Shown piece by piece: positions 6,448 to 56,928 of a DNA stretch of 64,000 nt. The stretch is taken from positions 115,055 through 179,054 of the IMG/VR virus record IMGVR_UViG_3300010352_001565. One strand, written 5' to 3'. Both the position numbers and the translations under genes were made by a program. The first letter of the stretch is position 1, and every line of letters begins with the position of its first letter. This stretch comes from a virus. Below the pieces are notes generated by a model. The model made no database searches. It saw only the letters and a list, made by a program, of their open reading frames with translations, and was not told the origin of the DNA.

Positions 6448-6612
6448 TAGCGTTCAGATCAGTCAATGCTCCAGAGGAAGCGCCAGCCGCTAGTGCGCTC
6501 TAGAATGAATGCTTGGCCGACTATACTCTCCAAGCGTCCTTGCGGGTTGACGGCAGCCTGAATCATTCACAACTGCGGAGCCGGAGGGTGAGGTGCATAT
6601 TCACCCGTTAAC

Positions 6613-6646
6613 GCCCTGGGTATCTCGAACTACCCAGGGCTTTTTC
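6613..6646 (+). terminator. rho-independent terminator
   Basis: gccctgggta-tctcgaac-tacccagggc then TTTTT; lies 165 nt after DHFR stop. Confidence 0.55.
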
Positions 6647-6667
6647 TTCAAGTTCTTACACCTGACT

Positions 6668-31826: not shown

Positions 31827-33203
31827 ATGAAACTTAAACTAACGCTTCTGTTGCTGCTCGGTCTTACTTCAGCGCTTCCTGCTGTGGTGGTTAAATCCCG
31901 TCCTCCAACTCCAGTTCAGTGGTCAGTAACGAATTTGGATTGGAAAGTGGCCGATCCAGCTTCGTTTACCATGCCTCCGTTCACAAAAGATGTGTCGTAC
32001 GGAGTTGTTAAAAAGATCCTCTATTTTAGAGACTATGCCATAACGCGCAATCCTCAGTGGGGAATCTCCACCATAGGGAGCACTTTCGTTTTAAACGAAG
32101 ACGGAAGCAAAGCGATTCAGATTGGAAATGAACCTGGAAGACTAATTTTAGTTTATACCACTCCGCACGGGACGATGACCGCTAGGCTGTCATCCTCACC
32201 GGTTGGAGGTCAGCTTGAGGAATACAAGGACTACAAGCCTGGGACGCTAGGATACGACCTAAAGCACGGGATGTACCCATACTACGCCGGAAAAACAAAC
32301 CTTAGCACTCAATGGAGCTACTGGAGAACGTTTTACAGAAACAGAAACTGCTGGATGTACGGAATGGACATGTCGGGTCTCGCTACAGGCGGTCCTGACC
32401 ACCAACCTTGGACGGCCCAGAACCACGGACCAGACCTCACTTTGATTTCACCGAGTTATGCAGTAACTGCAAAGCACTGCTTAGCATATCCAGGTCTCAC
32501 AGACAAGGTCACAGGATGGACTTGCTACAACGAGGCGCGCTTCACATTTGACAACCATGGCATCGAAGAGGTTGAAAGAGTCACCCACTTCGAAAGCGAA
32601 TCTGGAGAGGTATTCGAAAACTTCATGGACGAGATCGTCTCGTGCCCAGACTCAGCGAAACAATCTGACCTGGTGCTTATCCACTTCAGATACCCATGCC
32701 CGTCATACATCCATCCATTCCAGGTGTTTACAATGGCTTACCATGACTATATCACCACCCCAATGAGCAGCGTTCCAGTCATGTGGCTCAAAAATAACGA
32801 CATCCACGGAAAAAGCGACTACTACTGGGGAGGTCTTATGGTTCTCGGGTATGGAACGGTAGAAGGAGGAAGCTGCAGTGCTAAAATGGTAGACTACACA
32901 TTCAAAGCAGTTCCGAACGAGTGGTACGACGTCAACGAGCTAGACCCCTACATGAATGGACCTTTTGCCCCGTTTGGTTTTAACGCTGCATGGGGAGGAG
33001 ACAGTTCTGGCCCTGTCTTTACCATCCTTAAGGACAACCCACTCCCAGTATTTTTGTTCGCGGTTCAGTCAGCGTCGATCAGCGGACCTGCAATAACAAA
33101 TGAAAGAGAGCTAGAGTGGATTGTAAAAGAGCTCGCTGACCACGGAGAGCACCTTAACGAAGTTGATTTGTCAAAATACCCTAAACTGAGCGAACTTCCA
33201 TGA
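31827..33203 (+). CDS. secreted trypsin-like (S1) serine protease, paralog 1
   Basis: Signal peptide MKLKLTLLLLLGLTSALPA; His motif VTAKHC (cf. TAAHC); Ser motif GDSSGP (cf. GDSGGP); C-terminal DLSKYPKLSELP shared with paralog 2. Confidence 0.65.
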   Translation: MKLKLTLLLLLGLTSALPAVVVKSRPPTPVQWSVTNLDWKVADPASFTMPPFTKDVSYGVVKKILYFRDYAITRNPQWGISTIGSTFVLNEDGSKAIQIGNEPGRLILVYTTPHGTMTARLSSSPVGGQLEEYKDYKPGTLGYDLKHGMYPYYAGKTNLSTQWSYWRTFYRNRNCWMYGMDMSGLATGGPDHQPWTAQNHGPDLTLISPSYAVTAKHCLAYPGLTDKVTGWTCYNEARFTFDNHGIEEVERVTHFESESGEVFENFMDEIVSCPDSAKQSDLVLIHFRYPCPSYIHPFQVFTMAYHDYITTPMSSVPVMWLKNNDIHGKSDYYWGGLMVLGYGTVEGGSCSAKMVDYTFKAVPNEWYDVNELDPYMNGPFAPFGFNAAWGGDSSGPVFTILKDNPLPVFLFAVQSASISGPAITNERELEWIVKELADHGEHLNEVDLSKYPKLSELP

Positions 33204-34516
33204 GAACACTAGTCGCACTGCTATTTTCTGCATACGCCGCCGTCGGCGGTCAGCTCGTGATGAAAGGAAAGGCTCCCGTTCCAGTAAACACAAAGCTGGA
33301 CCTAGCCCTTCGAAGGATCGACGTTCCGTTTACTGAAACGCGCGGCGAGACTATTAAAGGAGCGTTCACTCGCACGAGGGTCAGCCCTATCTGGTACCGC
33401 GAATACAACCCGCAGGTCGTTTGGCCGATGACTTCGATCGGTCCTGTCAGCGTTTCTGGAAATAAAGTGTCTGAGCTTGCGGACGGAAACGCTGTTGTTT
33501 GCTTTAGCACTCCTTACGGGATTATGACAAAACGGTGGTGCATAAAAACGGGAGGAGGGCTTTCATTCACAGACACTGGGTATGCTGAAGGAACGCTTGG
33601 CTACAGCCTTCAAAACGGAATGACCCCGCACTACGCCGGAAAATACGACGAGTCGCAGTGGAGGTTCACGAACACCTACAACAGGAATCCGAACTGCTGG
33701 ATGAAGGACCTTGACATGACCGGGCTGTCGACAGGAGCTTACGCAAACAGGTACGTTTACGACACCCCTCCAGTTCCAGACGCCGGTCCTAACAGGTCTG
33801 GGTTTGACTGCATCCTCATATCTCCGAGCTGCGCAATCACCGCCTGGCACTGCATAAACGGAACAGACGTGGATGTTGTCGGATATGCTCCTGGAAACGG
33901 AGAGACGACTCCATTCATAGCTGCCGACGGAACTGTGCACATAAGCAAAGCCACAACATTCTGGAATGTCTCTAAGGCCGTTAAAGCGTCAGATCCTGGA
34001 AACCCGGGCTACGACCTTTGCCTCGTCATACTCGACACCCCTCTTCCTCCAGATATTCACCCGTTCCAGATGATTCCTCCATGCTTCACAAACTATGTTC
34101 CAAACACTGGATCTTCCGGATACCCAATCCTAAACGGAATTCCAGTTATGTGGTTGAGAAACAACACTCAGAAGATGAATATTCAGTACCTTGGAGGAGA
34201 GAGCATAAATTGGCCGTGGATGGACTACGATCGTGACCCATACTCGGACAGCTACGAGCTCGGGTCCTCAGCAACGTATCCTCGGGTGTTATTTACAGAG
34301 CATGACGCAAACGGGGGAGACAGCGGCGGCCCTGCATTTGCAGTGCTTAAAGATGATCCACTTCCAGCGCTTGTCCTTGTAATTCACGGTCCAGTGTTTG
34401 GACCGACATACTGGTCCTCATACGATTGGATTACGAACAAGATATTCCAGACGTGCGGAGAGAAAGTTCACGAGATCGATTTGTCAAAGTACCCAAAGCT
34501 GGAAGATCTTCCATAA
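33200..34516 (+). CDS. secreted trypsin-like (S1) serine protease, paralog 2
   Basis: Signal peptide; ITAWHC His motif; canonical GDSGGP; C-terminal IDLSKYPKLEDLP; ATGA overlap with paralog 1. Confidence 0.7.
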   Translation: MRTLVALLFSAYAAVGGQLVMKGKAPVPVNTKLDLALRRIDVPFTETRGETIKGAFTRTRVSPIWYREYNPQVVWPMTSIGPVSVSGNKVSELADGNAVVCFSTPYGIMTKRWCIKTGGGLSFTDTGYAEGTLGYSLQNGMTPHYAGKYDESQWRFTNTYNRNPNCWMKDLDMTGLSTGAYANRYVYDTPPVPDAGPNRSGFDCILISPSCAITAWHCINGTDVDVVGYAPGNGETTPFIAADGTVHISKATTFWNVSKAVKASDPGNPGYDLCLVILDTPLPPDIHPFQMIPPCFTNYVPNTGSSGYPILNGIPVMWLRNNTQKMNIQYLGGESINWPWMDYDRDPYSDSYELGSSATYPRVLFTEHDANGGDSGGPAFAVLKDDPLPALVLVIHGPVFGPTYWSSYDWITNKIFQTCGEKVHEIDLSKYPKLEDLP

Positions 34517-34521
34517 AAGTG

Positions 34522-34550
34522 TTTACAAATCCATGGAAGCGCTGTACTGT
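34522..34550 (+). promoter_or_regulatory. sigma70-like promoter P5 (TTTACA-N17-TACTGT), ATG 6 nt downstream
   Basis: aaaagtgTTTACAaatccatggaagcgctgTACTGTgcttccATG. Confidence 0.45.
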
Positions 34551-34556
34551 GCTTCC

Positions 34557-35072
34557 ATGAAGTCATTCATCAGCGTAACGCCGATCCCGTCTGCGGACAC
34601 CGATCTCACTCGGTACGCCGCCGTGGTCAATGTCTCAGATAGCCCTGGGCGGGCGTTTAGCAGCCCAGTTCCACACTTCTGGTTTCCGATTCATGAGACC
34701 GGCTTTTGGGGATACCACGCTTTCTACGGTGCTGCGAAAGTATTTGACAAGTTTCGAGACCAAGGCCAGATTCTGATCCACTGCCACGGCGGCATAAGCC
34801 GCAGCCCATCAGTCGCGTTTGCCATTGCGCTGTCTGAGTTTCAGTCCTGGGTTCAAGCTGAGGAGGCTTTTGGTTATTACGGCAAGCGATACGGAGACGC
34901 TTACCGAGTAGAGCTTAACAGAAAGCGCATTCCAAAGGACGTGGTCAGGTTTCTAATTGAAAGGAAGGTGCATCCTACGTTCAGCCTAGGGGGTCTTCTT
35001 ACATCGATCAAGTCTCCAGATGCTTTCCCTCCAGGATGCAACAGAGGTCATAAGGGGCTCATTGCGGCATGA
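34557..35072 (+). CDS. dual-specificity/tyrosine protein phosphatase
   Basis: Active-site loop IHCHGGISRS (HCx5R(S/T)); ~170 aa DSP size; taken from the in-frame ATG 6 nt after P5 -10 rather than ORF-track start 34398. Confidence 0.65.
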   Translation: MKSFISVTPIPSADTDLTRYAAVVNVSDSPGRAFSSPVPHFWFPIHETGFWGYHAFYGAAKVFDKFRDQGQILIHCHGGISRSPSVAFAIALSEFQSWVQAEEAFGYYGKRYGDAYRVELNRKRIPKDVVRFLIERKVHPTFSLGGLLTSIKSPDAFPPGCNRGHKGLIAA

Positions 35073-35446
35073 ACGGCGTTAAGTCATCAGACAGAGCTTG
35101 GTACGCACCCGACGGAAGGGTGGGTCTGATGCCCATTCGCGGCATAAAGTTCGTTGAGCTCCCTAAAGTTGGGCAGTACGTCCAGGCTTTGCAACCGTGC
35201 GGCACCGGAGAGACGTCAAAGGCTACGTTCTCAATTTATTCTCCTGTAAGCGGCAAAGTGGCAGAGGTTAATCACAAAGCAATTTCAGACCCGTCAAAAA
35301 TATCGACCGACCCGTACGGAACGTGGCTGTTCAAAGTAGCCGCAACAAGCGGGACAGGTCACCTTAAAGCATGCAAGCCCTACCAAATAAAAATCACCGG
35401 ATCTACCTCGTCACACCCGAAACGATTCCTCCGCCGTCCGTTGTGA
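35069..35446 (+). CDS. glycine-cleavage H-protein-like lipoyl/biotinyl carrier domain protein
   Basis: IKFVELPKVGQYV.....GETSKATFSIYSPVSGKVAEVN...DP..I..DPYGTWLFKV parallels GcvH VFVELPEVG..ESVKAASDlysPvsGevvevN..DPygeGWl with Lys at lipoylation position. Confidence 0.55.
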   Translation: MNGVKSSDRAWYAPDGRVGLMPIRGIKFVELPKVGQYVQALQPCGTGETSKATFSIYSPVSGKVAEVNHKAISDPSKISTDPYGTWLFKVAATSGTGHLKACKPYQIKITGSTSSHPKRFLRRPL

Positions 35447-35883
35447 TACGCCACATAACTCGCGAGGTCGCGGATCTTAAGGCTTCGGTATTCTCTGGAG
35501 TTGGAGTTCCGCCACATCTCATCAACCCGCAATCGTTGGACATGAGGGCCGCTGAGCAGCTGTTCGTGGCAGCGGCGTCTGAAGCAATCACGCGAGAAAT
35601 TGCGAACAATCCTGACATTGAGAAGGATCACGCCTGCCGAGTAATGGGGATGCGAAAGTCAGACTACGACGCGGCAGTTCGAGCTTACAGGTCGGATGGC
35701 TACAAGCGCTCGTCTCGAAAACGAAAGAGGCACTGGAAGCGCCAGGTCTACCTCATCATACAGAAGAGGAAGGCTGGATGGGTTTCGAACTTCGCGTCAG
35801 TGTACGGTCATCCAAGCAAAGAAATCTCCGTTCTAATCGGGCATGGAAAACCTCGAAACGGAAGCGCTTCAGTCTGTCCTTGA
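35371..35883 (+). CDS. hypothetical basic protein (true start probably internal)
   Basis: ORF overlaps gene 35069 by 75 nt; basic C-terminal part. Confidence 0.3.
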   Translation: MQALPNKNHRIYLVTPETIPPPSVVIRHITREVADLKASVFSGVGVPPHLINPQSLDMRAAEQLFVAAASEAITREIANNPDIEKDHACRVMGMRKSDYDAAVRAYRSDGYKRSSRKRKRHWKRQVYLIIQKRKAGWVSNFASVYGHPSKEISVLIGHGKPRNGSASVCP

Positions 35884-36127
35884 GATAAACAGGCAGCTGT
35901 ACGAATGCATCCCGCAATTTATTGAAGAAAACGGTCCGCTTGTTGAGTTTGTCAGCATCGGCGAAGACTGCGCGGTGAACTTTATGGGAATCTCGATCTT
36001 TGACTCGGCGGTTGACGAGCGGGAGTGGAAGGACGAGGAAAACGGAGAGCGCGAACCGATTGGTCCATATCTGAAGCGACGGGTTTACGAAGTCGCAGGA
36101 GAACTCGTCAAAATAGAGCTGAAATAG
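35843..36127 (+). CDS. hypothetical acidic protein
   Basis: 94-aa ORF. Confidence 0.35.
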   Translation: MENLETEALQSVLEINRQLYECIPQFIEENGPLVEFVSIGEDCAVNFMGISIFDSAVDEREWKDEENGEREPIGPYLKRRVYEVAGELVKIELK

Positions 36128-36465
36128 TGTACACAACGCCACCAGGATCAACTGTCGCTCGCTGCGCGAGTTACTGCTCGCACTGTGAGGACTACCACTT
36201 TAGTGAGCCTTGGCCGTGCGCCAAAGAGCGCAAATCTGAAGTTAAAAAGGAAGTGAAGGGTCTCGCAAAGTCTGATCTGTGCGAGGAGAGCAAGGCTTAT
36301 CTTAAGGAAACCCGCCGAGCGCGGGCTGCAGCCCATCCGACTTCTGCATCAATCGCTCTGGCCGAGTCTGAGCCAGAGCCGCAGAAGAATCCTGTCATGT
36401 TTAAAAACAGTGGCTTTCTAAGCCTCATTCTTGGAGGAGCGAAAGCCAACAGCATCTCTGACTAG
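36127..36465 (+). CDS. hypothetical Cys-rich protein (GTG start candidate within ORF 36025..36465)
   Basis: CASYCSHCEDYHF..PWPC. Confidence 0.3.
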   Translation: MYTTPPGSTVARCASYCSHCEDYHFSEPWPCAKERKSEVKKEVKGLAKSDLCEESKAYLKETRRARAAAHPTSASIALAESEPEPQKNPVMFKNSGFLSLILGGAKANSISD

Positions 36466-36470
36466 GTCGC

Positions 36471-36483
36471 TAGTTAGCGCATG
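36471..36483 (+). promoter_or_regulatory. late-type motif TAGTTA-N4-ATG
   Basis: gcTAGTTAgcgcATG. Confidence 0.5.
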
Positions 36484-39273
36484 CAGCGACATGATGCTCC
36501 GGGAGTCTACTTAAAGGTTGAGGATCGCAGCCAAGTGATTGGCGGCGAACTTGACGAGTTTGGCTCGAACCTGCGCTACCACCCGAAACCAAGACCAGAG
36601 AAGAGCCCGTTTGCTCCCATCATACTGGTTCAACCTGCCGATCTATTCATTGAGCGAGGCCAGGCCGCGGCGTTCTCTGTGTTTGCGACCGGATCTAAGC
36701 CTCTTCGCTACACATGGTACATCAACTCTGAGCCTGTCCCAAACAATGATACGCCAGAGCTGTCACTCACCAACGTGAGAAACACCACCGACGTCTGGGT
36801 GGACGTCGAGAATGCATACGGAGCCGTGAGGAGCAACCCCGCTTCAGCGAAAGTCCACGTCCCGGTAATAATTCCTCCCTCGATTCGGACGCAGCCTTCC
36901 AGTATCCATGACGCGATTCCGCACATCGAAGTAACGTTTACGGTTGACGCTCGTGGGACAGACCCAGACTACCAGTGGTACGCCGATGGCCAACCTGTGG
37001 GCACAAACAGCAGCGTTCTGAAAGTTCTTGCGGACGCCAACGCCGACTATACCGTGGAGGTCTACAACGAGGCTGGAAGCGTCACAAGCAACGTCGCAGA
37101 GCTTCGTCTTATGGAGGCTCCGATAATCCTCGTTCAACCAGTGGCAGTGTCAGCTCCGAAGGGAAGCCAAGCCACTTTCAGAGTTACGGCATCCGGGGCT
37201 CAGATGTCGTACCAGTGGTTCCGCAACGGAACTCCCGTTGGGATAGACAGCAACGAGCTTGTCGTGAACGCAACCGCATCAGCGAACTTTTGGGTGGTCA
37301 TCACGAATCCTGCAGGACACACCCAGAGCGCGACGGTTCACCTTTCAATTCAGACCGTCATCACATCACAGCCAGCAGACACAACAGTGGCTCCTGGAGA
37401 CTCTGCAATGTTTGCAGTAACGGCAACGGGAGAAGGACTAAGCTACCAGTGGTGCTACGAAAATGGAACTGCAATAAGTGGCGCGACATCGAGCGTGTAC
37501 CAAGTCATAGGAACATCTGGAGCTGGATTCAAGGTCAAAGTCACAGGGTCTGACGGAGTCACTGTGACTAGCAGGGTGGCGCGGTTAACCGTGCAAGCGC
37601 TAGCAACGCGGATCGTCACCCAGCCGGTTGACTCGTTTTCGAACACGTACCATCCAGAAGGGAGATACGATCCGAGCGATCCGTTTCGGAATCCTCCAAC
37701 GGTACAGTTTACTGTAGGCGCCGTGGGCACCAACTTAAGGTACCAATGGTACTGCAACGGGGTTACAACCGAGGATTACGATGGAAGTCCAGGAACATCT
37801 GCTACGTTTGTTCACCCGCGGGCAGACTACCCGAACTGGGAGAATAACGGAGACGTATTTACGTGCAAAGTTACTGGAGATGACGGAGTCACTGTAACAA
37901 GCCAGCCAGCGACGCTTCACCTTACTCCAGATGGAACGTCTCTTGGTCTTGCCACCGGAGGGGCGGACGCCATAGAAGGAACGACAGGATTTGGAATCAT
38001 TTACTACGTTGGTGGAGACGGCCTACTTCTGAAGGTCACAAATAATAGCGGGACTGTCCTGTTTAACGGCGCGCTAAACAGCCGCATAAACAATCCTGGA
38101 ACTTTTGGCGTTCCGGCAGTAGCGCTCGGCACTACCACGTACACATTTGAGCTTAAAGGAGCCGACGGCGTCACGATAACTAAAAGCGCGACGTACACTG
38201 GCAGTCCTTTAACCATAAGTCTGGCTACTCCTCTGACTCCTGCGACCACAACTGTGCTCGGACAAGTGCTGTTTACAGTCGGTGTCACGTCTAACATGAT
38301 ACCAGTCCCAAGTTCTCACGGAGTTGGTGACGGCTGGAATGAAGGCACATACAGCGTCGAGTACACAGTTTGTCCAGCTTCGTACTCGTACTGGTATAGA
38401 GGGAGCGTGGAAACTCCAACACCAGTATTCTTCGCCCACGGGAGCTCGATGAGCGACAACCTTTCTTGCAACACCTGGACGACCAAGTTTTTCCCTCAGA
38501 GCATTGCTGACAATGGAATGGTTGTGACATGCAAGATTACGGCCGTGAATGGAACTGTGCAAAAATCAGTGACAACGACCGCGCTGCTGACGGTAAGACC
38601 TCGTCCTCCACAAATAGTCACAAACCCATCTGCGGTCACGATAGACACGACGCAGACTGCAACATTCACCATAGGCGCGGTAGCTCCCGATGGAGACACA
38701 CTAGCGTATCAGTGGTACAGAGGGTACCTCGACTGGCTTTGGTGGGGAAATCCGATTTCAGGAGCCACGTCACCAACGCTTAACCTGTCAGGACTTAGCT
38801 CATGCGAGGACTGGATAGGGTGCGTGGTAACTGGAACTGGAGGGAACGCCGTCATGACCGTTGGAGTTCCGCTTCACGTTCAGCAAGCACTTCCGCTCTC
38901 TAAGTCATTCACATCCGTAAACCAAAAAGTGGTAGACCTGAGTTTCGGATTTCTTCCTGCTGGAACGTACCACGTCAAGTATACAGGGGGCTTGCTGAAG
39001 TTTAGCCCTGATGGAAACTGGAGAATTGACCAGGCCAACGCCGGGTTTGTAGTTTGGAACAACTTTAACAAGCACACCGACTACCCTCCAGAGTACGTCT
39101 TCTACTACCGGGTTAAAATTCTCGTCAATGAGGGAGGATGGTACGACCACAGCGAAATTGACTTCTACCATGATGGGACCGGAGAAGTGTTCGTCAGGTT
39201 CGTTGACTGGAGCGCTGAGGACAACATTATCGGATCTCCTGCTCCGACCTTCCTGATGACGAGGGTCTCTTAG
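36481..39273 (+). CDS. 930-aa protein with multiple Ig-like repeats (fibre/decoration/receptor-binding candidate)
   Basis: At least five repeats carrying YQW(Y/F/C)..G..(I/V).G(A/T).S..(L/Y) signature typical of bacterial Ig-like domains. Confidence 0.65.
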   Translation: MQRHDAPGVYLKVEDRSQVIGGELDEFGSNLRYHPKPRPEKSPFAPIILVQPADLFIERGQAAAFSVFATGSKPLRYTWYINSEPVPNNDTPELSLTNVRNTTDVWVDVENAYGAVRSNPASAKVHVPVIIPPSIRTQPSSIHDAIPHIEVTFTVDARGTDPDYQWYADGQPVGTNSSVLKVLADANADYTVEVYNEAGSVTSNVAELRLMEAPIILVQPVAVSAPKGSQATFRVTASGAQMSYQWFRNGTPVGIDSNELVVNATASANFWVVITNPAGHTQSATVHLSIQTVITSQPADTTVAPGDSAMFAVTATGEGLSYQWCYENGTAISGATSSVYQVIGTSGAGFKVKVTGSDGVTVTSRVARLTVQALATRIVTQPVDSFSNTYHPEGRYDPSDPFRNPPTVQFTVGAVGTNLRYQWYCNGVTTEDYDGSPGTSATFVHPRADYPNWENNGDVFTCKVTGDDGVTVTSQPATLHLTPDGTSLGLATGGADAIEGTTGFGIIYYVGGDGLLLKVTNNSGTVLFNGALNSRINNPGTFGVPAVALGTTTYTFELKGADGVTITKSATYTGSPLTISLATPLTPATTTVLGQVLFTVGVTSNMIPVPSSHGVGDGWNEGTYSVEYTVCPASYSYWYRGSVETPTPVFFAHGSSMSDNLSCNTWTTKFFPQSIADNGMVVTCKITAVNGTVQKSVTTTALLTVRPRPPQIVTNPSAVTIDTTQTATFTIGAVAPDGDTLAYQWYRGYLDWLWWGNPISGATSPTLNLSGLSSCEDWIGCVVTGTGGNAVMTVGVPLHVQQALPLSKSFTSVNQKVVDLSFGFLPAGTYHVKYTGGLLKFSPDGNWRIDQANAGFVVWNNFNKHTDYPPEYVFYYRVKILVNEGGWYDHSEIDFYHDGTGEVFVRFVDWSAEDNIIGSPAPTFLMTRVS

Positions 39274-41106: not shown

Positions 41107-41114
41107 GCTTGTGT

Positions 41115-41996
41115 ATGCCAGATCAAAACAACACTGAACTCGTTACGACCGTCGGCGTCGAGATCGAGATGGAAAACACACGGAATGTCAACTCAGATGT
41201 CCGTTTCATCTCTGACAAGCTCTCCCGTGCCGGTCTCAACTGGGTCGTTAAAACAGACGCTTCTTGCGGCCGCTCTGGAGCGGGAGTTGAGCTAAACTCT
41301 CCCATTCTGCGCACCGACGCTGATCTCAATTCTGTGTCGAGAGTCTGCGAAATGATGGATGAACTTGGTTATAAGGTGACGAAGAAATGCGGGTTGCACG
41401 TCCATATCGACGTCCGCCGTCTCACTGAGGACGAGAGAAACCGCCTTATCCGCTTCTTTGTCCAATACCAAGACTGCTTCTTTGAGCTCGCTCCTGGACG
41501 CCGCGCGGTGCACTACTGCGCGCCGCTGACGGCAGACGTGCTTGCTAAGCTGCGGCAAAACCGCGGTTGGTCTGCGTGGTCTACCCGCTATTTCTGGATG
41601 AACGGGTGCGCTTACACGGAACACGGCACTGTTGAGTTCCGCCTGATGAGTGGCAGCCTCAACCCGAATCATGTGACTGGATGGGTCAACTTCTTGCTTT
41701 ATGTCTATGACAAGGTTGTGAACCACGGAGCTTTCGGAGACGCCACATTCTTCCATCCAGATGCTTCGACTGGACGCGACTGCTTTGACAAAATGCTGCA
41801 CGTCACTGGACTTGACAACCTCGAGGTTGAAGGTCGAGCTGAAGTTGCTCGCAGCTGGGTGACCGCTCGCTGGGACGACGCTCACTCAGATGTCCAGTCA
41901 ATTCGCGCCGAACGACGCCGCCGCCTCCAAGCTGCTTGGCGCGGTGAAGCCCCGTATGTGAAAATCGTATCGCCTAACACCACAATGGCTGACTAG
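41115..41996 (+). CDS. glutamine-synthetase-fold amidoligase (Amidoligase_2/GCS2-like), paralog A
   Basis: TVGVEIEM first strand, GLHVHIDV, VEFRLMSGSLN; same three blocks in genes 43378 and 56981; ORF track start 41109 is alternative upstream codon. Confidence 0.6.
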   Translation: MPDQNNTELVTTVGVEIEMENTRNVNSDVRFISDKLSRAGLNWVVKTDASCGRSGAGVELNSPILRTDADLNSVSRVCEMMDELGYKVTKKCGLHVHIDVRRLTEDERNRLIRFFVQYQDCFFELAPGRRAVHYCAPLTADVLAKLRQNRGWSAWSTRYFWMNGCAYTEHGTVEFRLMSGSLNPNHVTGWVNFLLYVYDKVVNHGAFGDATFFHPDASTGRDCFDKMLHVTGLDNLEVEGRAEVARSWVTARWDDAHSDVQSIRAERRRRLQAAWRGEAPYVKIVSPNTTMAD

Positions 41997-42822: not shown

Positions 42823-43381
42823 GAAGGATCCGAAGTGCGCCCCGATCGAAATGCGCCGAGATGTGGAGCACCTGGTTGAGATGATCTACACCAACCTGAA
42901 GCAGCCGTATGCATCAATCTGGATCTCCCAGGTGACCCTCCTGGCTCCTCGGTGCAACACAACTAAGCTGTGCAAGGCCATGACATTCTGGATCCTTAAC
43001 GAGCTTACTGGGATGGTCGATTCAATTCGCGCTAGACGCCTAAAAAGGACGATTGCGTTTTACTACAAAATCCATACATCCGAGGCGGCGCACTGCAAGG
43101 CGCTTGTTCATCGGAAAACAAAGAAAGCGGCTCTCCGGTCCAGGGGATACGCCCAGAAGTTCGCCGTTCAGGCCATGGCGTTTGCAATTAAAAACGGGTA
43201 CCGCTCATCAGCCCAGGCTCTTAGGGCGTGCATGCTGTCGCGAATCGCGGTCCGCTCAGGGTCTAAGAAGCACTATCAGCTCAGGCCACATCTTGCTCCT
43301 CACACAGATCCGTTCGGATGCTACACCCATGCCGCCGTAACACTTCTGGTGATGCTTAACCGCTTTGTAGTTAAGCAGTGA
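42812..43381 (+). CDS. hypothetical basic protein
   Basis: 189-aa ORF. Confidence 0.4.
   Translation: MDFKKDPKCAPIEMRRDVEHLVEMIYTNLKQPYASIWISQVTLLAPRCNTTKLCKAMTFWILNELTGMVDSIRARRLKRTIAFYYKIHTSEAAHCKALVHRKTKKAALRSRGYAQKFAVQAMAFAIKNGYRSSAQALRACMLSRIAVRSGSKKHYQLRPHLAPHTDPFGCYTHAAVTLLVMLNRFVVKQ
43368..43380 (+). promoter_or_regulatory. late-type motif TAGTTA-N4-GTG
   Basis: tgTAGTTAagcaGTG. Confidence 0.45.
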
Positions 43382-44373
43382 ACGCCAGACGCGAAATTTG
43401 CAATCTGTTTGAGGACGCTGATCTCAATCTTGGCAGCGTTGGAATTGAGATCGAGATGCTTGCCAGGAAGGACTTGGTTGCAAACCGAGAGCTTGAAGCA
43501 GTTGTCCGCCAGCTCGATTTCACGTACGGGTTCGACGATTCTGTCACTCCAATGGCAGGAAGCCTTGAGGAGCTTTACACAAACGTTGAAATCTCAATCG
43601 GTCCTGATAGGTGGGACTGGATCTCCAAGCGGTTGATGAAGATGCTGGCGTACCTCAAGCACGAGGACTACGTCGCGGTTTCTCGAAAGCACTCAAACAG
43701 CCCTGTCTCAATTTCAACTGAAACGGATCTCTACTCTGATGGCGCAAAGAAAATCAGGCTCGCAAGAGCAAGGGTCCCTCAAAATTTCTCCGCCGGAGTT
43801 CACATCCACTTCGACGCCAACAGCTGGTTTTCAGGAACAGAGCACGCAGCTCGGTTTGTCAAGGTGCTAAATCGCTGGATTGAAGATGTTCCGAGACACC
43901 TGCCAGTTCAGCGTTACGGAAACGACGGCGAGCGAGGCCACGAGTTCGCCAGGATCCAAGGTTATCACGAATTGAACGGGGACAACTGGGGATCAGGATA
44001 CATCAAGCCAGCGGAGTATTTCCACAGAATAGGAAAGAATGTTGACAGGTTCATGGCGCTCAACGTTAAACCAGCTCTGAAACGCGGCGACATTGAGTTC
44101 AGATTCATGCACGGAACTCTCAACTACGCAACAATCGCGGGTTGGTTTGAAACCCTGGCAGAGCTTATGACATACGCGCAGCGCGAGCATGGAGGGTTTT
44201 CGGACTTCGTAGCTTGGTCTGCAAAGAAAGCTCCTGAGACCAAGAAGTTCATCGAGAAATCGTACAAGCTGAGCAAGGCGTCAAAAGAGCCGATCAGAAT
44301 TTCCCCATCAAGAGCCGCTAAAAAGATCCTCAATCCGCGGGCGGCTGACGCGCCTGTGTCAAACCCGGCATAA
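43378..44373 (+). CDS. GS-fold amidoligase, paralog B
   Basis: SVGIEIEM, GVHIHFDAN, IEFRFMHGTLN. Confidence 0.6.
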   Translation: MNARREICNLFEDADLNLGSVGIEIEMLARKDLVANRELEAVVRQLDFTYGFDDSVTPMAGSLEELYTNVEISIGPDRWDWISKRLMKMLAYLKHEDYVAVSRKHSNSPVSISTETDLYSDGAKKIRLARARVPQNFSAGVHIHFDANSWFSGTEHAARFVKVLNRWIEDVPRHLPVQRYGNDGERGHEFARIQGYHELNGDNWGSGYIKPAEYFHRIGKNVDRFMALNVKPALKRGDIEFRFMHGTLNYATIAGWFETLAELMTYAQREHGGFSDFVAWSAKKAPETKKFIEKSYKLSKASKEPIRISPSRAAKKILNPRAADAPVSNPA

Positions 44374-46176: not shown

Positions 46177-47310
46177 ATGAGTAACGTATCACCGCAGCAA
46201 GTCGCCTCTGTAATGAGGCTCACGGACAACCAGCTCAAAGCCGAATATTGGATCGGCAATAAGACTGGCCACTTGTTCAGGATCATCCGTATCGAAGGAA
46301 ACGGTTCCGCCCGCGAGGTCACCTACTGCGCTCCCGGCCAGCAAGAGACCTATACGAAGCCTCTTGACAAGTTCGCCAAAATCTTCCACCAAGCTGATCG
46401 CGACGAGATCTACTCTATTCTCGCTCCGCTGATTCAGCCTGTCGGTGAGGATGAAGCTGTTGGTCTGCTTATTGAACCCGACCAACGCCACGACTTCGGC
46501 CGCATCATCCTCCACGAGGAAACCCGCTTAGCCATCTCCACCGGTCTGAAGCGCATTCAAAACCGCGACGCCATGGAGCAAGTTTGGGGTCTGAGCGCCA
46601 TTGAGCCTCTCGGCAACCGCTGCATCTTGAACGGCTGGGGATTGCCCGGCACCGGCAAGACGCTCGCCTGCTACTGCATCGCTCGCATGCTTGAGAAGAA
46701 AGTCTATCAGGTCGACTACTCTGCCATCATTTCAAAGCAGCTTGGTGACACTGCCAAGCACATTGTGGCTGCGTTCGCTGCTGCCAAAAAACACGACGCC
46801 ATCTTGCTTTTCGACGAAGCAGACTCTCTTGTGTCTCGCCGCATCGAGATAGCCATGAGCACGTCGTTCGCGACCAGCATCAACCAAAACCGCAACGTGT
46901 TCATGCAGGAGCTTGACCGCTATGACGGGATCGTTTACTTGACCACCAACATGTTCGAGAACTACGACCCAGCCATGCTGCGCCGCATTGCTCGTCACAT
47001 CCCGTTCAATCTGCCCAATGCAGAAATGCGCCGGCAACTCTTTGCATGGCACCTCCCTCGCGTCGAGCGCGTCCGCATTAGCGATTGGACGAACATCTGC
47101 GCTTCGACAGAGGGCTTCTCTGGCGGCGACATCAAGAATGTTGTCATGAATTCGATCGACCGCGTCAGCATGAGCGAGGACCCGGAAACGTGGTATCTGA
47201 CTGAGGACGCTGTTCTCACTGAGGTTGGACTCATCAAGAGCTCCAAGGAACGCCACGCCCGGAACAACGGCCGCAATGACGAAGCCATCGCCGCAGCCAC
47301 CTTGAAATAA
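46177..47310 (+). CDS. AAA+ ATPase
   Basis: Walker A GLPGTGKT, Walker B ILLFDEADSL, sensor-1 TTN, arginine finger region MLRRI. Confidence 0.7.
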   Translation: MSNVSPQQVASVMRLTDNQLKAEYWIGNKTGHLFRIIRIEGNGSAREVTYCAPGQQETYTKPLDKFAKIFHQADRDEIYSILAPLIQPVGEDEAVGLLIEPDQRHDFGRIILHEETRLAISTGLKRIQNRDAMEQVWGLSAIEPLGNRCILNGWGLPGTGKTLACYCIARMLEKKVYQVDYSAIISKQLGDTAKHIVAAFAAAKKHDAILLFDEADSLVSRRIEIAMSTSFATSINQNRNVFMQELDRYDGIVYLTTNMFENYDPAMLRRIARHIPFNLPNAEMRRQLFAWHLPRVERVRISDWTNICASTEGFSGGDIKNVVMNSIDRVSMSEDPETWYLTEDAVLTEVGLIKSSKERHARNNGRNDEAIAAATLK

Positions 47311-47645
47311 TGCGAGTCGTCCAAACAGTTTCTCACTACGACGGTCGCGTCAGAAAGCGCGACAAGTGGACCTGGGCCGTCCGTCTCGACGGAACGGCCC
47401 AGGAGCTTAAAACCGTCCAGTATGTGGTCTATGAGCTGCACGAGTCCTACCGCGACCCGATTCAGATCGTGGACGACCCGCGGAACAACTTTAGGCTCTT
47501 CGGGGCATCCTACGGCTCATTTACGATTGGAGTTGAGATCTACTTCAAGCACGGGACTCCCGGCATGTCTGGGAAGAAACTGAAAGCGAAGATAAAGCTC
47601 CGCCTGTTTTACCCGACGGGGCTTTATCACCGAATTGAAGACTAG
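47310..47645 (+). CDS. hypothetical protein
   Basis: 111-aa ORF, ATGA overlap. Confidence 0.4.
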   Translation: MRVVQTVSHYDGRVRKRDKWTWAVRLDGTAQELKTVQYVVYELHESYRDPIQIVDDPRNNFRLFGASYGSFTIGVEIYFKHGTPGMSGKKLKAKIKLRLFYPTGLYHRIED

Positions 47646-52267: not shown

Positions 52268-52771
52268 ATGAACACAAAGTGGTCGACGTTCGTGCGACTA
52301 GATCTTCAAGACAGAGACCTCAAAGGTCTTGGTGCAGCTGGGATCATTTCCCAGAAAGCAGATGAAACATGGGTCAACTCCACCTACATGGTGACCCTAA
52401 CCCGAGACGTTCCTGTTGGTCAAGGCTGGACATCCAAGATGATCCGGCTCACCATCAAGCGTCGCGACAAGAAACCCATCCATGACTGGCGCGACATGCA
52501 GCGCATCAAAAACGAGCTTGTCGGTGCTGAGCACGAAGCCATGGAAATGTTCCCTGCCGAGGAGCGCCTGGTAGACACTTCAAACGTCTTCTTCCTGTTT
52601 GTGTTCGCTGACCCAAAGGTTCGCTGGCCGTTCGGCTTCGCGACCAGGTGGGTCAACAACGTTTCGGAGAATGGAAGTGTCCAACGCCCATTCCCTCTCG
52701 ACGACATGCCAAAGGATTGCATGACCGCCGCGCAATATCAGGAATTCCGTGCAACGCAAAAGGAACAATGA
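52268..52771 (+). CDS. hypothetical protein
   Basis: 167-aa ORF, ATGA overlap with thyA. Confidence 0.45.
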
Positions 52772-53697
52772 AGCAATACCATGACCTCCTTCGCTTGATT
52801 CTCAACGAAGGAAAAATAACAACCGACCGCACTGGCACAGGCACGCAGTCTGTGTTTGGTGCTCAAGCCCGCTTTCCTCTGAAAGATGGCTTCCCACTTC
52901 TCACCACCAAGAAGCTTTACACGAAAGCTATCATCCACGAGCTTCTTTGGTTTATACGCGGGGTCGCAAAGCCAGGCGACCCGATGATGCTCAACTACCT
53001 GAAAGATAACGGCGTCACCATCTGGGATGAGTGGGCAGATGAAAACGGAAGCCTTGGCCGCGTCTACGGCGCCCAATGGCGAGATTGGATCGGCGTTGAT
53101 CCTAACACTGGAAGCGTGACGCATACCGACCAGCTCGATGCTTTGATCAAGCGCCTGATCAGTAAGCCAGACGACCGCCGCCTCATCGTCACTGCCTGGC
53201 AGCCTTCTGAGGTCCACTGCATGGGGCTCCCCTCGTGCCACTGCTTCTTCCAGCTGAAAGCGTATCCGCTGACGCTTGAAGAGCGGATCGCCGAATTCCA
53301 TCGCCGAAATCCTTCTGTCGACGCGTTTATCAGCAATGACTCTGACCTCGAGCGCTACGACATTCCGAAGCACAGTCTCGATCTTCAGCTATACCAGCGC
53401 AGCTGCGACACTTTCCTTGGCGTGCCATTCAACATTGCATCATACGCGCTGCTGACCATGATGATTGCCCAGGTCGCCAATATGATGCCCGGAACTTTCA
53501 TTCACACCTATGGTGACCTTCACCTGTATCTCAATCACATCGAACAGGCTAAGCTGCAGCTCACCCGCGATTGCCGCCCGCTTCCGAAGATGGTTATCAA
53601 CCCGAATGTCAAAGACATTAACCAGTTCACCTACGAGGACTTCAAACTCGAAGGATATGATCCCCACCCAACCATCAAAGGCGAAGTCTCTGTATAG
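52768..53697 (+). CDS. thyA: thymidylate synthase (canonical ThyA type)
   Basis: [16 protein letters not shown], catalytic LPSCHCFFQ (Cys), [21 protein letters not shown]; ORF 52648 trimmed to MKQYHDL with AAGGAA SD-like 4 nt upstream. Confidence 0.8.
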
Positions 53698-54075: not shown

Positions 54076-54891
54076 ATGTCAAAACAATTCTTCGCGCTAA
54101 ACGACGGGTCAAACCCTCTTGCTTGTAACCTAACAGAGTTGAACGCCGCTGAGTCGGTCGATAATGGCTTCATGAGCCACAACGACTGGATCGCCCACGT
54201 TAACCGTTATGCTTACACCGGCAAGGTCATCCAGAAATCAAAACCTGGCACGATCCTTGACGTGGGATGCGGAAAGCTCCAGCTTCCGTACTACCTGTGG
54301 CGCAACCGCCTACATCTGGAAGAAAACGGGTCCTACTGGGGTATCGAACTCCGCGCCAAGCAGGCGTGGCTTGAACCGATCAACTGGAAGACCAGCATGA
54401 ATCTCATCAAGGCTGACATCATTCTTGACGAGATCAACGAAGACAACATTGAATTCTGGCCTGGCCAGTTCGACCTTGTCACCTGCTTCGAGACGTGGGA
54501 GCACGTTCCGCGCGACAAAGCCATCATTCTGGCCGAGCGCTTGTTCAACTGGACGAAGCCAGGAGGAATCCTGTTGTTCAGCTCTCCGAATGCCGGAGTG
54601 TCCGATTCAACGGCTGACAACCACACGGACGCAGAAGGCGAAAGCCGCGAGTGGGAGATGGAGTCGAAGATTGAAGTTCTCGAAGACGCTGGATTCAGCC
54701 TGCACGAGAACTTTGGAACGTTTTGCGGCATCACTCGCCTTCCTGAGGAGTTCCAGGAGCGCCTGCGCACCGACGCCTTGCTGATCCAGGCGAAGAAGTT
54801 CCTGAACCACGCAAACTTCACGGCGCTTGTGGCCGCGGCATACCCGCAGTTCAGTAACAACAGCCTGATGCACTTTGTGCGCAGAGCGTAA
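54076..54891 (+). CDS. class I SAM-dependent methyltransferase
   Basis: Motif I ILDVGCGKLQ, downstream DLVTCFETWEHV (motif II/III), Rossmann-MTase length. Confidence 0.6.
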   Translation: MSKQFFALNDGSNPLACNLTELNAAESVDNGFMSHNDWIAHVNRYAYTGKVIQKSKPGTILDVGCGKLQLPYYLWRNRLHLEENGSYWGIELRAKQAWLEPINWKTSMNLIKADIILDEINEDNIEFWPGQFDLVTCFETWEHVPRDKAIILAERLFNWTKPGGILLFSSPNAGVSDSTADNHTDAEGESREWEMESKIEVLEDAGFSLHENFGTFCGITRLPEEFQERLRTDALLIQAKKFLNHANFTALVAAAYPQFSNNSLMHFVRRA

Positions 54892-55093: not shown

Positions 55094-56107
55094 GTGAAAG
55101 CAAAGTTGTTTTTGGTAGATGGAGCAGACGGAACCGGAAAATCTACCCTTGCAGAGGAGATCCGGAGACAGACAGATGGAGTCATCCTTCACCAGAGTTA
55201 CCGCTGGCGCGACATGATGTTTGTCTACCACACAGCCGCCCTCCACTTCGCCGAAAAGTTCATCGCTAAAGGAAAGACGGTCATCCTCGACCGCCACTGG
55301 CCGTCAGAGATGGTATATGGTAAAGTGTTCAGGAACGGATCCCGTTGGCCTCTTGAAGGACGCATGATGGACCGAGTCATACTCAAGATGGCAGGAACGT
55401 ATATCTTCACCCTTGGAGATCCAGAGGCCATCGCCAAGCGCCATGCCCAGCTTCAGTGCGTCCGAAGGGAAGAGTATTCGCACTCGATTTCTCAAGTAGC
55501 CACAGAATACAACAACCTATTTTATGGGTTTCCGCACAAAGTTGCCAAAGACCACGCCGAATTTATTGCAAGCACCGGAGGCTTCATACACAGGAAAGAT
55601 GCGTTCGCTTATCGTATGGAGATCGAAGGACAGGATGTCTGCGGTTTTGTTGAAGCTCTGATAAACAAGGCTGGAAAATACACCGCAGTGCAGTATCAGC
55701 CAGCTCTTCAGTCCCGATTTCGAAATGTGCTAGGCCACATCGAGTCTGCTCGCTTTCTAATCGTCGGTGACGAGGCAAACCCGAAGATGAACCACATCTT
55801 TTGGCCGTTTCATGACTACGGTCACTCTAGCTTGTTTTTGGCCCGCACCTTGCACAACATCAACTTCCGCGAAGAAGATGCGATGTGGACCAACGTGAAT
55901 CACTCTGACCATGCTGACGCGCACATTCGCGCAATACTAGAGATGAAACCACTCCGCGTGGTAGCTCTCGGCAAGAATGCTGAAGCTGGATTGAAGAAGA
56001 TTGGGGTCAACGACTTTGTGACTGTCAGGCACCCGCAAGCGGCAATGCGATTTTCGTCGCTTTCGGATGTGTCTTACAAGGACGAATTGAGCCGAGCATT
56101 GTTCTAA
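55094..56107 (+). CDS. fusion of P-loop (d)NMP-kinase-like domain and UDG-superfamily-fold domain (5-hmdU DNA kinase / aGPT-Pplase-like candidate)
   Basis: GTG start; N-terminal LVDGADGTGKST (Tmk-like P-loop) and ILDRHW lid region; C-terminal VGDEANPK..WPF.D.G..SLFLARTL (cf. UDG family-4 motif A GEAPG..E...G.PF.G..G.LL) and RHPQAAMR (cf. motif B HPSPL). Confidence 0.55.
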   Translation: MKAKLFLVDGADGTGKSTLAEEIRRQTDGVILHQSYRWRDMMFVYHTAALHFAEKFIAKGKTVILDRHWPSEMVYGKVFRNGSRWPLEGRMMDRVILKMAGTYIFTLGDPEAIAKRHAQLQCVRREEYSHSISQVATEYNNLFYGFPHKVAKDHAEFIASTGGFIHRKDAFAYRMEIEGQDVCGFVEALINKAGKYTAVQYQPALQSRFRNVLGHIESARFLIVGDEANPKMNHIFWPFHDYGHSSLFLARTLHNINFREEDAMWTNVNHSDHADAHIRAILEMKPLRVVALGKNAEAGLKKIGVNDFVTVRHPQAAMRFSSLSDVSYKDELSRALF

Positions 56108-56112
56108 TAGGA

Positions 56113-56928
56113 GTGCAAAAATTTAGAACCCCGAGCGAGGCTTATTTGGCTGTCCTCGCCGACGTTGTAGACAACCCAGAATACCGCGTTTCTCCACGCG
56201 GGCAGCCGATAGCCGAGAAGACAGACTACTCGTTTGAGGTAGCTCTCCCAGATGCAAGCCCGATCGTCACCCGTTCAGAGTCCCGCAACAAAACCATTGC
56301 CGACTACACCCACAAGGAGTTTGAGGTTTACGAGAGCGGATCTCGCAGAGTTGAGGATTTCGCGAAGATCAGCAGCTTCTGGAAATCACTCGCAAATCCA
56401 GATGGAACGATCAACTCGTCTTACGGACACTTGATCTTCAAAAACCAGTCGTGCGGAAATCCAACGTACGAAGTTCAGCGCAAGTTTCTGAACGAGCACG
56501 ACGGCAATGGCGGATCGGAAGGAGTGAACCTCAGCGAGCTTGAGCGAACACCATGGGAGTGGGCTTCCGAGTCTCTCATCCAGGACAAAGATACCCGCCA
56601 AGCCATCATGCACTTTAACCTTCCTGAACACTGTTGGGTCGGCAACCGTGACGTCACATGCACGATGCATGGAATCTTCCAGATACGCCAGGACAAACTC
56701 AACCTCTCAGTGGTCATGCGGTCAAATGACGTCGTTCTTGGTCTCGTATTCGATCTACCATGGTTCATGCACCTGATCGACAGGATGGTCGCAGCGCTGA
56801 AGCCAACGTATCCTGCCCTCACAAAAGGCCACTACCGCCACATGGCGCACTCAATGCACGTCTACGGACGCGACATGGAAAAGGTGAATATGATGCTCGG
56901 CAGGGGTATGCTCAGCGGCGCTCAGTAA
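56113..56928 (+). CDS. divergent thymidylate-synthase-family paralog (pyrimidine hydroxymethylase candidate)
   Basis: GTG start; DVTCTMHGIFQ aligns to ThyA PCHAFFQ (Cys retained); VVMRSNDVVLGLVFDLPWFMHL aligns to [23 protein letters not shown]; far more divergent than thyA at 52768. Confidence 0.55.
   Translation: MQKFRTPSEAYLAVLADVVDNPEYRVSPRGQPIAEKTDYSFEVALPDASPIVTRSESRNKTIADYTHKEFEVYESGSRRVEDFAKISSFWKSLANPDGTINSSYGHLIFKNQSCGNPTYEVQRKFLNEHDGNGGSEGVNLSELERTPWEWASESLIQDKDTRQAIMHFNLPEHCWVGNRDVTCTMHGIFQIRQDKLNLSVVMRSNDVVLGLVFDLPWFMHLIDRMVAALKPTYPALTKGHYRHMAHSMHVYGRDMEKVNMMLGRGMLSGAQ

Follow-up and report, generated by a model that had tools for sequence, protein, structure and literature searches.

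The 64,000-nucleotide stretch of viral DNA analysed here (positions 115,055 to 179,054 of the IMG/VR record IMGVR_UViG_3300010352_001565; hereafter, the window) carries on its plus strand, from position 34,522, a promoter followed by five tightly packed genes, which encode a predicted Cys-dependent phosphatase, a 125-aa protein related to the glycine-cleavage H protein (GcvH) and three orphan open reading frames (ORFs), ORF146, ORF94 and ORF112 (Table 1). It is the GcvH-like protein, a strongly remodelled member of its family, that is our main subject. The exact protein is recorded on six contigs of one phage, the longest of 222,710 bp, and the window is thus part of a jumbo phage genome; the four loci returned come from four different samples and show an identical gene order. 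The GC content is 52.7%, no tRNAs were found in the window, and the region 34000–36500 has no DNA similarity to any of 50,697 phage records.

The promoter of the cassette consists of a -35 box (TTTACA, 34522–34527) and a -10 box (TACTGT, 34545–34550) separated by a 17-nt spacer, with the ATG at 34557 following after 6 nt. On the plus strand of the window, the pattern TTTACA-N15-19-TAnnnT-N4-9-ATG is found 13 times, and on the minus strand not once, against the 0.035 copies expected for the full geometry from first-order Markov simulations of the window, and every copy (13/13) has an ORF of 68–377 aa downstream. The consensus of the set is atagttgcaaataaaTGTTTACAAAtttccgt.gcgTGATATAGT-N6-8-ATG, and if one mismatch is allowed, the 10-mer TGTTTACAAA is found 13 times, where 2.8 occurrences are expected. 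The weakest -10 box of the set is that of the phosphatase copy (TACTGT, against TATAGT), and a generic sigma-70 scan, the thresholds of which differ, did not detect the phage promoter. The initial annotation had assigned the cassette its own promoter and a leaderless start, and both are borne out by the excess of copies and by the spacing to ATG 34557; the architecture, although predicted from sequence, is well supported. The 13 copies themselves look like a genome-wide array of leaderless transcription units.

Table 1. Coordinates of the cassette, of other features of the window and of viral loci with canonical GcvH genes
Feature	Sequence	Coordinates	Strand	Remarks
Phage sigma-70-like promoter	Window	34522..34550	+	13 same-geometry copies; mRNA predicted leaderless; transcription start inferred
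Putative Cys-dependent phosphatase of the dual-specificity phosphatase (DSP) fold, 171 aa	Window	34557..35072	+	Loop HCHGGISRS, DSPc match, AlphaFold 2 (AF2) fold
Derived GcvH-family lipoyl-carrier protein (predicted), 125 aa, isoelectric point (pI) 9.96	Window	35069..35446	+	GCV_H, PDB and Foldseek matches
Orphan ORF146, 146 aa, pI 10.2	Window	35443..35883	+	GTG start overlaps the GcvH-like stop (GTGA)
Orphan acidic ORF94, 94 aa, pI 4.2	Window	35843..36127	+	Same gene string; called on all contigs
Orphan ORF112, 112 aa	Window	36127..36465	+	GTG overlaps the preceding stop by 1 nt; called on 2/4 contigs
13 promoter copies	Window	4042, 18232, 21752, 24981, 28276, 34522, 39835, 41079, 46141, 51509, 51780, 56947, 58897	+	ATG 6–8 nt past the -10 box
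Two signal-peptide trypsin-like paralogues, 458 and 438 aa	Window	31827–33203, 33200–34516		Directly upstream of the cassette
DHFR	Window	5932–6447		142.8 bits; pI 9.15
Amidoligase_2 genes	Window	41109–41996, 43378–44373, 56981–57961		
CTP_transf_like gene	Window	42304		
Canonical ThyA	Window	52648–53697		339 bits
S-adenosylmethionine (SAM) methyltransferase	Window	54076–54891		
P-loop kinase fused to UDG-like domain	Window	55094–56107		
Divergent thymidylate synthase (TS)-like enzyme	Window	56113–56928		
DUF5672+GT90 glycosyltransferase	Window	60203–61750		
Viral GcvH locus	L021 (220 kb)	5902–7475		Cupin, GcvH, CTP_transf_like, TS-like; dCMP deaminase further along
Viral GcvH loci	L040–L044	4361–6177 (L041)		Order TS-like, dCMP deaminase, GcvH
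Viral GcvH locus	L023 (T4-like; UvsX and gp41-like helicase)	5331–6357		ThyX overlaps GcvH
Viral GcvH locus	L037	3834–6246		dCMP deaminase 1.5 kb upstream of GcvH

The ATGA overlap described earlier between the phosphatase gene and the GcvH-like gene is present, at 35069–35072. Four-nt overlaps of the same type, however, join 15 of the 83 adjacent gene pairs in the window, and such an overlap is the default gene packing in this genome. An alternative start of ORF146, at ATG 35371, would lengthen its overlap with the GcvH-like gene to 76 nt; this ORF, which contains a KRSSRKRKRHWKRQ stretch, is called on two of the four identical contigs returned and has no match in Pfam, PHROG, NCBIfam or PADLOC, its sole database match being itself. 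No family was found for ORF94 in the same four collections, nor for ORF112, the final gene ahead of a 930-aa Ig-repeat protein, in the Pfam scans, NCBIfam and PADLOC. Overall, PADLOC returned nothing for any of the five proteins, and neither the GcvH-like protein nor the orphans had a PHROG match. A 94-aa ORF downstream of the phosphatase in locus L007 was considered as a relative of ORF94 and rejected, the two being unrelated. We regard the cassette as a real transcription unit, in which the five genes are tightly packed.

For the first gene, metagenome gene callers placed the start at ATG 34533 (179 aa); we favour 34557 (171 aa), which agrees better with the geometry of the promoter, with the alignment of the family and with the low predicted local distance difference test score (pLDDT <50) of residues 1–7. 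The P-loop HCHGGISRS (aa 75–83, nt 34779–34805), with Cys76 at nt 34782–34784, conforms to the HCxxGxxRS loop on which the initial annotation had based its assignment of a DSP/PTP-type phosphatase, and the AF2 model (pLDDT 87; predicted template-modelling score, pTM, 0.84) indeed has a DSP/PTP fold. The match to Pfam DSPc (E=5.9e-6, 26.6 bits) falls under the gathering score of 33.5, and among PDB sequences DUSP5 matches best (E=8.9e-6); Foldseek aligns the model with ShufPTP, DUSP5, Tk-PTP, MKP5 and PRL-1 at probability 1.0, but with template-modelling (TM) scores of only 0.4–0.5. A search of 5.8 billion proteins returned 24 relatives, all metagenomic, and tblastn against the 50,697 GenBank phage records returned no match. 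Most members of the family carry a precomputed DSPc match; in their 25-member alignment, the elements WFPIxE, W, F and LIHCHxGxxRS are invariant, and the family has a C-terminal helical extension of its own; the invariant Glu of WFPIHE (34680–34697) is aligned with the general-acid Asp of DUSP5. Judged by these motifs and by the model, the gene product is a predicted Cys-based (CX5R) phosphatase of DSP fold, from a divergent branch with all its members in phage-like metagenome contigs.

The second gene product matches Pfam GCV_H (PF01597) with 55.5 bits (E=6.5e-15), passing the gathering score of 22.2, and its best phmmer match in the PDB is GcvH of M. marinum (3tzu, E=9.4e-16), with GcvH of Escherichia coli at 4e-12. 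Lys51 of its ETSKAT motif (nt 35219–35221) aligns exactly with the lipoyl-Lys64 of E. coli GcvH; in the AF2 model, it lies in the turn between strands 43–49 and 53–58 (pLDDT 87–93 there), within a core of pLDDT 80–93 over residues 11–90. When this model was compared with the PDB by Foldseek, the top 21 matches were all GcvH (best TM score about 0.75), the carrier known as GcvH-L (5a35) ranked 22nd (TM 0.62), and biotinyl and E2 lipoyl domains were far behind. Thus, the proposal that this gene encodes a GcvH-like protein with a Lys at the lipoylation position holds, and the lipoyl/biotinyl-type fold that it called for is present in the form of a GcvH fold. The protein is 34–53% identical to cellular GcvHs over the core and 29–42% identical to canonical viral GcvHs, with no specific kinship to the latter. 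The signature of the lipoylation hairpin is kept, with a Glu at K-3, Lys51, Tyr57, SPVSG and a Gly at K+11; work by Fujiwara and colleagues reportedly found the Glu at K-3 and the Gly at K+11 to be important for lipoylation. The gene descends from that of a cellular glycine-cleavage H protein and has been remodelled.

The extent of the remodelling became apparent upon comparison with 119 cellular-type and 27 viral homologues (146 in all) and with E. coli GcvH, the numbering of which is used here. The protein scores 62.6 bits on NF002270 (cut-off 117) and 54.2 bits on TIGR00527 (cut-off 115.85), whereas the control viral GcvHs of loci L021 and L023 pass the NCBIfam GcvH cut-offs with 138–169 bits, scores of 150 for L021 and 169 for L023 among them. 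Four positions, conserved in 97–100% of the cellular-type and 93–100% of the viral homologues, are changed: H13 to R (window Arg9, nt 35093–35095; His in 119/119 and 26/27, respectively), E14 to A (Glu in 118/119 and 26/27), S67 to F (Ser in 116/119 and 25/27) and D68 to S (Asp or Glu in all 146); D38G and V63S are further changes. Moreover, an 8-residue deletion, seen in none of the 146 homologues, removes the alpha1 helix (E30–G37), and no helix lies between strands 17–20 and 26–30 of the AF2 model. Of the 30 columns with a conservation of at least 90%, the protein retains 20, among them E61, K64, Y70, P72, V73 and G75 of the hairpin and the fold-defining W15, P45, G48 and W100, and has lost 10; the losses cluster in the arm cavity and alpha1 and spare the lipoyl hairpin, as well as the Pro, Gly and Trp residues that define the fold. 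The charge is inverted as well: the net charge is +10.7 and the core alone has a pI of 9.52, against a median pI of 4.49 (maximum 5.0) for the cellular homologues and a maximum of 4.77 for the viral ones, and there is a basic extension of 14 aa at the C terminus. The His-to-Arg change that occurs naturally at window Arg9 falls on the H of the HEW motif and is the same change as the human pathogenic GCSH p.His57Arg; human His57 we take to be the His of HEW, a numbering in agreement with the Phe53, Phe74, Gln76, Asp98 and Lys107 of PMC9990993.

A HMMER search of 1.84 billion representative proteins found no close relative, the next best match having 67 bits and 45% identity, and in no top match do a basic core, a deleted alpha1 and the loss of H-E occur together. 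Most of the few ‘basic’ matches have a canonical core and an Arg-rich tail that seems to be out of frame, and one protein with an alpha1 gap (P0287) has kept HEW. Likewise, a single-sequence scan of IMG/VR returned no relatives and an alignment-based scan only canonical GcvHs; the protein is a singleton in both protein libraries searched. All of this indicates that it is not a normal H protein.

A captured host gcvH gene drifting under relaxed selection, without function, would account for the singleton status, for the loss of 10 of 30 highly conserved positions and for the internal deletion. However, the ORF is intact, lies in a promoter-bearing operon and overlaps both its neighbours; the core is confidently predicted; the losses fall mainly on the arm cavity and alpha1, with the hairpin and the fold-defining residues spared; and the protein is identical on all six contigs, the four returned being from four different samples. 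We consider a decaying remnant very unlikely.

The inverted charge bears on a second alternative, in which the fold is reused without its cofactor: Lys51 would stay unmodified, and the basic beta-barrel, together with ORF146, would bind nucleic acid or an acidic partner, perhaps as a protein that is injected or associated with the virion. LplA and LipB normally recognise lipoyl-acceptor domains that are acidic, and we count this in favour of a cofactor-free protein, as we do the basic core and tail, when all 146 homologues have a pI of 5.0 or less, and the charge of the neighbouring gene products, the phosphatase (pI 9.45) and ORF146 being basic and ORF94 acidic. Yet the lipoylation hairpin (E61, K64, Y70, P72, V73 and G75) is retained while positions elsewhere have drifted, and neither a nucleic-acid-binding family nor a virion hallmark was found in Pfam and PHROG scans, so that we hold this alternative to be unlikely.

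The lost features have defined roles in other H proteins. In that of E. coli, Glu12, His13 and Glu14 lock the aminomethyl-lipoyl arm in a surface cavity, Ser67, Asp68 and Tyr70 gate the release of the arm, and the T protein opens the cavity by pulling apart the alpha1 helix and the beta7 strand (PMC7733448). The human GCSH p.His57Arg protein is lipoylated normally and has 151% glycine exchange activity, but fails to restore DLST/DLAT lipoylation; the modelled P-protein clamp involves His57, Phe53, Phe74 (in alpha1), Tyr164 and Tyr167 (PMC9990993). Taken with the charge inversion, these studies make docking of the window protein on the P, T and L proteins and on lipoyl-relay enzymes unlikely, while the hairpin that is modified in H proteins is kept. 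We tentatively favour, with somewhat less than even confidence, a repurposed lipoyl carrier, derived from GcvH and uncoupled from glycine cleavage, which is encoded in a real leaderless operon of five genes and the adjacency of which to the phosphatase is incidental. A standard phage promoter would start a leaderless mRNA at 34557 encoding the five genes, and host lipoyl or octanoyl transferases would still modify Lys51. The protein would no longer shuttle aminomethyl groups among the P, T and L proteins, and would instead serve another partner as a lipoyl (dithiol) carrier or acceptor. Possibly, it accepts a lipoyl group that it does not relay onward, an option that fits human H57R, in which the same substitution leaves the protein lipoylated yet no lipoate is passed to E2. 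The adjacency of the phosphatase would then be a matter of gene order in this one lineage.

The initial annotation had already suggested a carrier outside glycine cleavage, or a decoy, and part of this stands: the protein belongs to the GcvH family with its Lys kept, very probably works outside glycine cleavage, fails the cut-offs, has lost the arm residues and alpha1 and is inverted in charge. The parts that do not stand are the analogy with the SirTM-linked carriers and the links to the phosphatase and to the amidoligases, as detailed below. Since the failed cut-offs, the lost arm residues and alpha1, and the inverted charge are also what a decoy could show, the protein may be read in that way too.

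Several points weigh against a carrier uncoupled from glycine cleavage. Cavity mutants of the E. coli H protein (E12A, E14A, S67A and others) lose stand-alone activity but still shuttle with P, T and L (bioRxiv 10.1101/2021.03.28.437365), and the loss of cavity residues alone is therefore not decisive against glycine-cleavage function. Modification of Lys51 is predicted from sequence determinants, and the charge-inverted surface could also block recognition by LplA, LipB or LipM. ThyA, a TS-like enzyme and DHFR, all encoded by the phage, use 5,10-methylene-tetrahydrofolate (THF) or recycle the dihydrofolate of ThyA, and this gene content fits a role in one-carbon supply. The proteome of the window is somewhat skewed towards basic proteins (pI >9.5 in 12/68, and even its DHFR is basic; Table 1), and part of the charge shift may thus be a genome-wide trend. 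Moreover, a single sequence affords no evolutionary test of constraint on Lys51, and the 64 kb inspected belong to a genome of at least 222 kb, elsewhere in which partner genes could lie.

A more far-reaching version of the repurposed carrier would make it a new kind of swinging-arm protein, positively charged, lipoylated by the host and off glycine cleavage, which either traps lipoyl or octanoyl groups or lipoyl-handling enzymes and so rewires host metabolism, or supplies a phage nucleic-acid pathway with a dithiol, acyl or aminomethyl arm. The pyrimidine-modification genes of the same genome are a candidate for such a pathway, because a basic surface would suit DNA or RNA binding. We regard this version as distinctly unlikely.

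How other viruses use GcvH bears on the question of one-carbon supply. Canonical GcvH genes were found in 33 viral loci of IMG/VR (L013–L045), forming 21 clusters at 70% identity, and gcvT adjoins GcvH in only one of them (L018). In 4 of the 21 clusters, enzymes of pyrimidine-nucleotide metabolism lie near GcvH (Table 1), and other clusters adjoin family-B DNA polymerase, UvdE, GIY-YIG, NT5C-like nucleotidase or C5-cytosine methylase genes. The arrangement suggests that canonical viral GcvH boosts the supply of 5,10-methylene-THF for the synthesis of thymidylate or modified pyrimidines, and it is this pattern that makes one-carbon supply the main rival for the window gene. The protein would be an auxiliary metabolic one, an extra H shuttle lipoylated by the host and working with the host P, T and L proteins, so that 5,10-methylene-THF made from glycine feeds the phage TS or TS-like (hydroxy)methylase while the phage DHFR recycles folate. 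The window indeed holds DHFR, ThyA and the divergent TS-like enzyme, the last homologous to those of L021 and L041, in addition to CTP_transf_like; some canonical viral GcvHs adjoin folate-dependent pyrimidine enzymes and others lie in surroundings of DNA or nucleotide metabolism; and the E. coli cavity mutants stay competent shuttles, some S67 mutants being faster. The window copy, however, is the one without canonical features, failing the cut-offs, lacking alpha1, H13, E14, S67 and D68 and carrying a charge of +10.7, and it does not adjoin the TS genes but lies 17–21 kb from them. Furthermore, no GcvT or GcvP was found among the window ORFs scanned with Pfam (at least 85 aa); the same scans gave no sirtuin, macrodomain, LplA, LipA or LipB. 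For this gene we judge one-carbon supply unlikely.

Matches to GcvH in phage collections have to be read with caution, because they can be host DNA. The ‘complete genome’ of Staphylococcus phage ISU935 (PV200784.1, 30114–41181; L050) was considered as a phage source of GcvH and rejected: the genes around its gcvH are aroD, arsC, thioredoxin and a methionine ABC transporter, that is, host chromosomal DNA. Searching phage records with the GcvH-like protein by tblastn gave 13 weak matches, of which the ISU935 record was the one inspected, and BFVD contains no viral model of GcvH fold. In the literature, a phage-encoded lipoyl carrier is the subject of no paper that we found; in the single mention, gcvH is listed as an auxiliary gene of archaeal prophages.

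The pairing of the phosphatase with the carrier, which the initial annotation had suggested may be functional, does not recur. None of seven distinct contexts of phosphatase homologues (including a 220-kb phage-like contig and a 45-kb contig) contains GcvH, and a profile of the phosphatase family found nothing within about 6 kb of GcvH in the 33 IMG/VR viral loci; since overlaps of the ATGA type are commonplace as well, there is no comparative support for a conserved phosphatase-GcvH two-gene system. The neighbours of the homologues are mostly small ORFs without assigned function, others being a CTP_transf_like-CoaE fusion, a nucleoside deoxyribosyltransferase, a DNA ligase and NT5C. One homologue (P0133) is encoded within a phage gene cluster of NAD-salvage and ADP-ribose functions, with NMNAT-like, NAMPT, NADAR, PTH2, PRPP synthetase, NUDIX and His_Phos_1 genes, and this context hints that the phosphatase family may act on phosphates derived from nucleotides or ADP-ribose instead of on proteins. 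A linkage between the top GcvH match (P0002) and a phosphatase homologue (P0131), both on 3,966-bp contigs, was considered and rejected as coincidence; P0002 lies in a gcvT-gcvH operon, and the 263-aa protein beside it is unrelated to P0131.

It had also been proposed that the phosphatase, the carrier and three amidoligases act jointly as a modification or decoy module, in the manner of the operon that encodes GcvH-L, SirTM, a macrodomain protein and LplA2. That carriers of this kind exist beyond glycine cleavage, under regulation by ADP-ribosylation (PMC12440151), that the window protein is clearly non-canonical, and that P0133 occurs in an NAD-salvage/ADP-ribose cluster are all consistent with such a module. 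The three Amidoligase_2 genes are present as described, but 6–22 kb away and inside a set of nucleotide-modification genes, and the link to them is not supported. Nor is the analogy with GcvH-L and SirTM: the score on TIGR03077 is 27.2 bits for a cut-off of 144.05, 5a35 comes only 22nd by fold, and the scanned window ORFs hold no sirtuin, macrodomain or LplA, nor has the cassette a PADLOC match. With the phosphatase-GcvH adjacency found in no other locus examined, a joint module is highly improbable.

The initial annotation placed the cassette inside the structural module of the phage. This is not established, because Pfam and PHROG scans of the 64-kb window gave no match to a capsid, portal, terminase or tail-hallmark family, those of the large ORFs matching only Ig and fn3 domains; the cassette is flanked by the trypsin-like paralogues and by the Ig-repeat protein, which has ‘tail’ and ‘Hoc-like’ PHROG matches only via its Ig domains. 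The tandem paralogues (31827–34516) have N-terminal segments resembling signal peptides, weak trypsin-fold matches and a common C-terminal motif, DLSKYPKLxxLP. The region 41109–61750, together with the DHFR gene, looks like a gene set for pyrimidine or DNA hypermodification (Table 1). Elsewhere in the window, a patatin-like phospholipase (3093–3968), unusual in a phage, scores 82.6 bits in Pfam and 213 bits on the PADLOC models of CBASS phospholipase effectors, and an AAA+ ATPase with a leaderless promoter of its own resembles IetA and TRIP13 (PADLOC, 97.5 bits) and is immediately followed by a prokaryotic YEATS-domain protein (47310–47645; both within 46177–47645).

Lipoyl carrier proteins are textbook parts of central metabolism, and demonstrated cases of repurposing are few: GcvH-L with SirTM, and LbpA in sulfur oxidation. 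The GcvH-like protein amounts to a natural separation-of-function H protein, with its hairpin kept, its arm cavity and alpha1 lost and its charge inverted; it could help to show which features are recognised by lipoyl transferases, by the P and T proteins and by lipoyl-relay enzymes and, if functional, would be a new type of phage effector on lipoate metabolism. The solitary viral GcvH genes beside ThyX, TS-like or dCMP deaminase genes, in turn, suggest a so far undescribed viral auxiliary route to 5,10-methylene-THF. DSP-fold phosphatases in viruses are already known, and the phosphatase of the cassette adds one more phage-specific branch of the fold. It shares with the DSPc/PTP enzymes (DUSP5, 2g6z; Tk-PTP, 5z5a; vaccinia VH1, 2rf6) the CX5R loop HCxxGxxRS and the fold, but differs from them in scoring below the gathering score, in a Glu in place of the general-acid Asp, in the C-terminal helical extension and in TM scores of 0.4–0.5.

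With cellular GcvH, the window protein has in common the fold (TM about 0.75) and the hairpin E-x-x-K...Y-x-P-V-x-G, conserved in register; it differs in reaching only about half the NCBIfam cut-offs, in H13R, E14A, S67F and D68S, in the deletion of alpha1, in a pI of 9.96 and in its 14-aa basic tail, and its gene has no gcvT or gcvP neighbours among the scanned ORFs. The canonical viral GcvHs resemble it in being encoded by solitary H-protein genes in large viral genomes without gcvP or gcvT (apart from L018, which has gcvT), genomes which, like that of the window phage, carry enzymes of TS type. Unlike it, they are acidic, nearly all keep HEW and S-D (26/27, 26/27, 25/27 and 27/27 at the four positions) and all keep alpha1, and several of their genes are immediately beside TS-like, ThyX or dCMP deaminase genes. 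GcvH-L, encoded with SirTM, a macrodomain protein and LplA2 (S. pyogenes, 5a35; S. aureus), is a carrier outside glycine cleavage that is regulated by ADP-ribosylation (PMC12440151) and, like the window protein, derives from GcvH, with a detectable similarity in fold (TM 0.62). The window protein, however, stays far below the cut-off of the corresponding ‘not_gcvH’ family (TIGR03077), and the window has no SirTM, macrodomain, LplA2 or LLM genes, the partners being instead a phosphatase and three orphans. The LbpA proteins of sHdr sulfur oxidation are single-domain GcvH-like lipoyl carriers that cannot replace GcvH and have dedicated partners (PMC6067878); on the related ‘GcvH_rel_desulf’ family (NF045810), the window protein scores 22 bits for a cut-off of 150, and it has no hdr, dsrE or lplA neighbours. 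Finally, human GCSH p.His57Arg has the same His-to-Arg substitution as window R9, as a single change in a canonical acidic H protein, whereas in the phage protein it is accompanied by many further changes.

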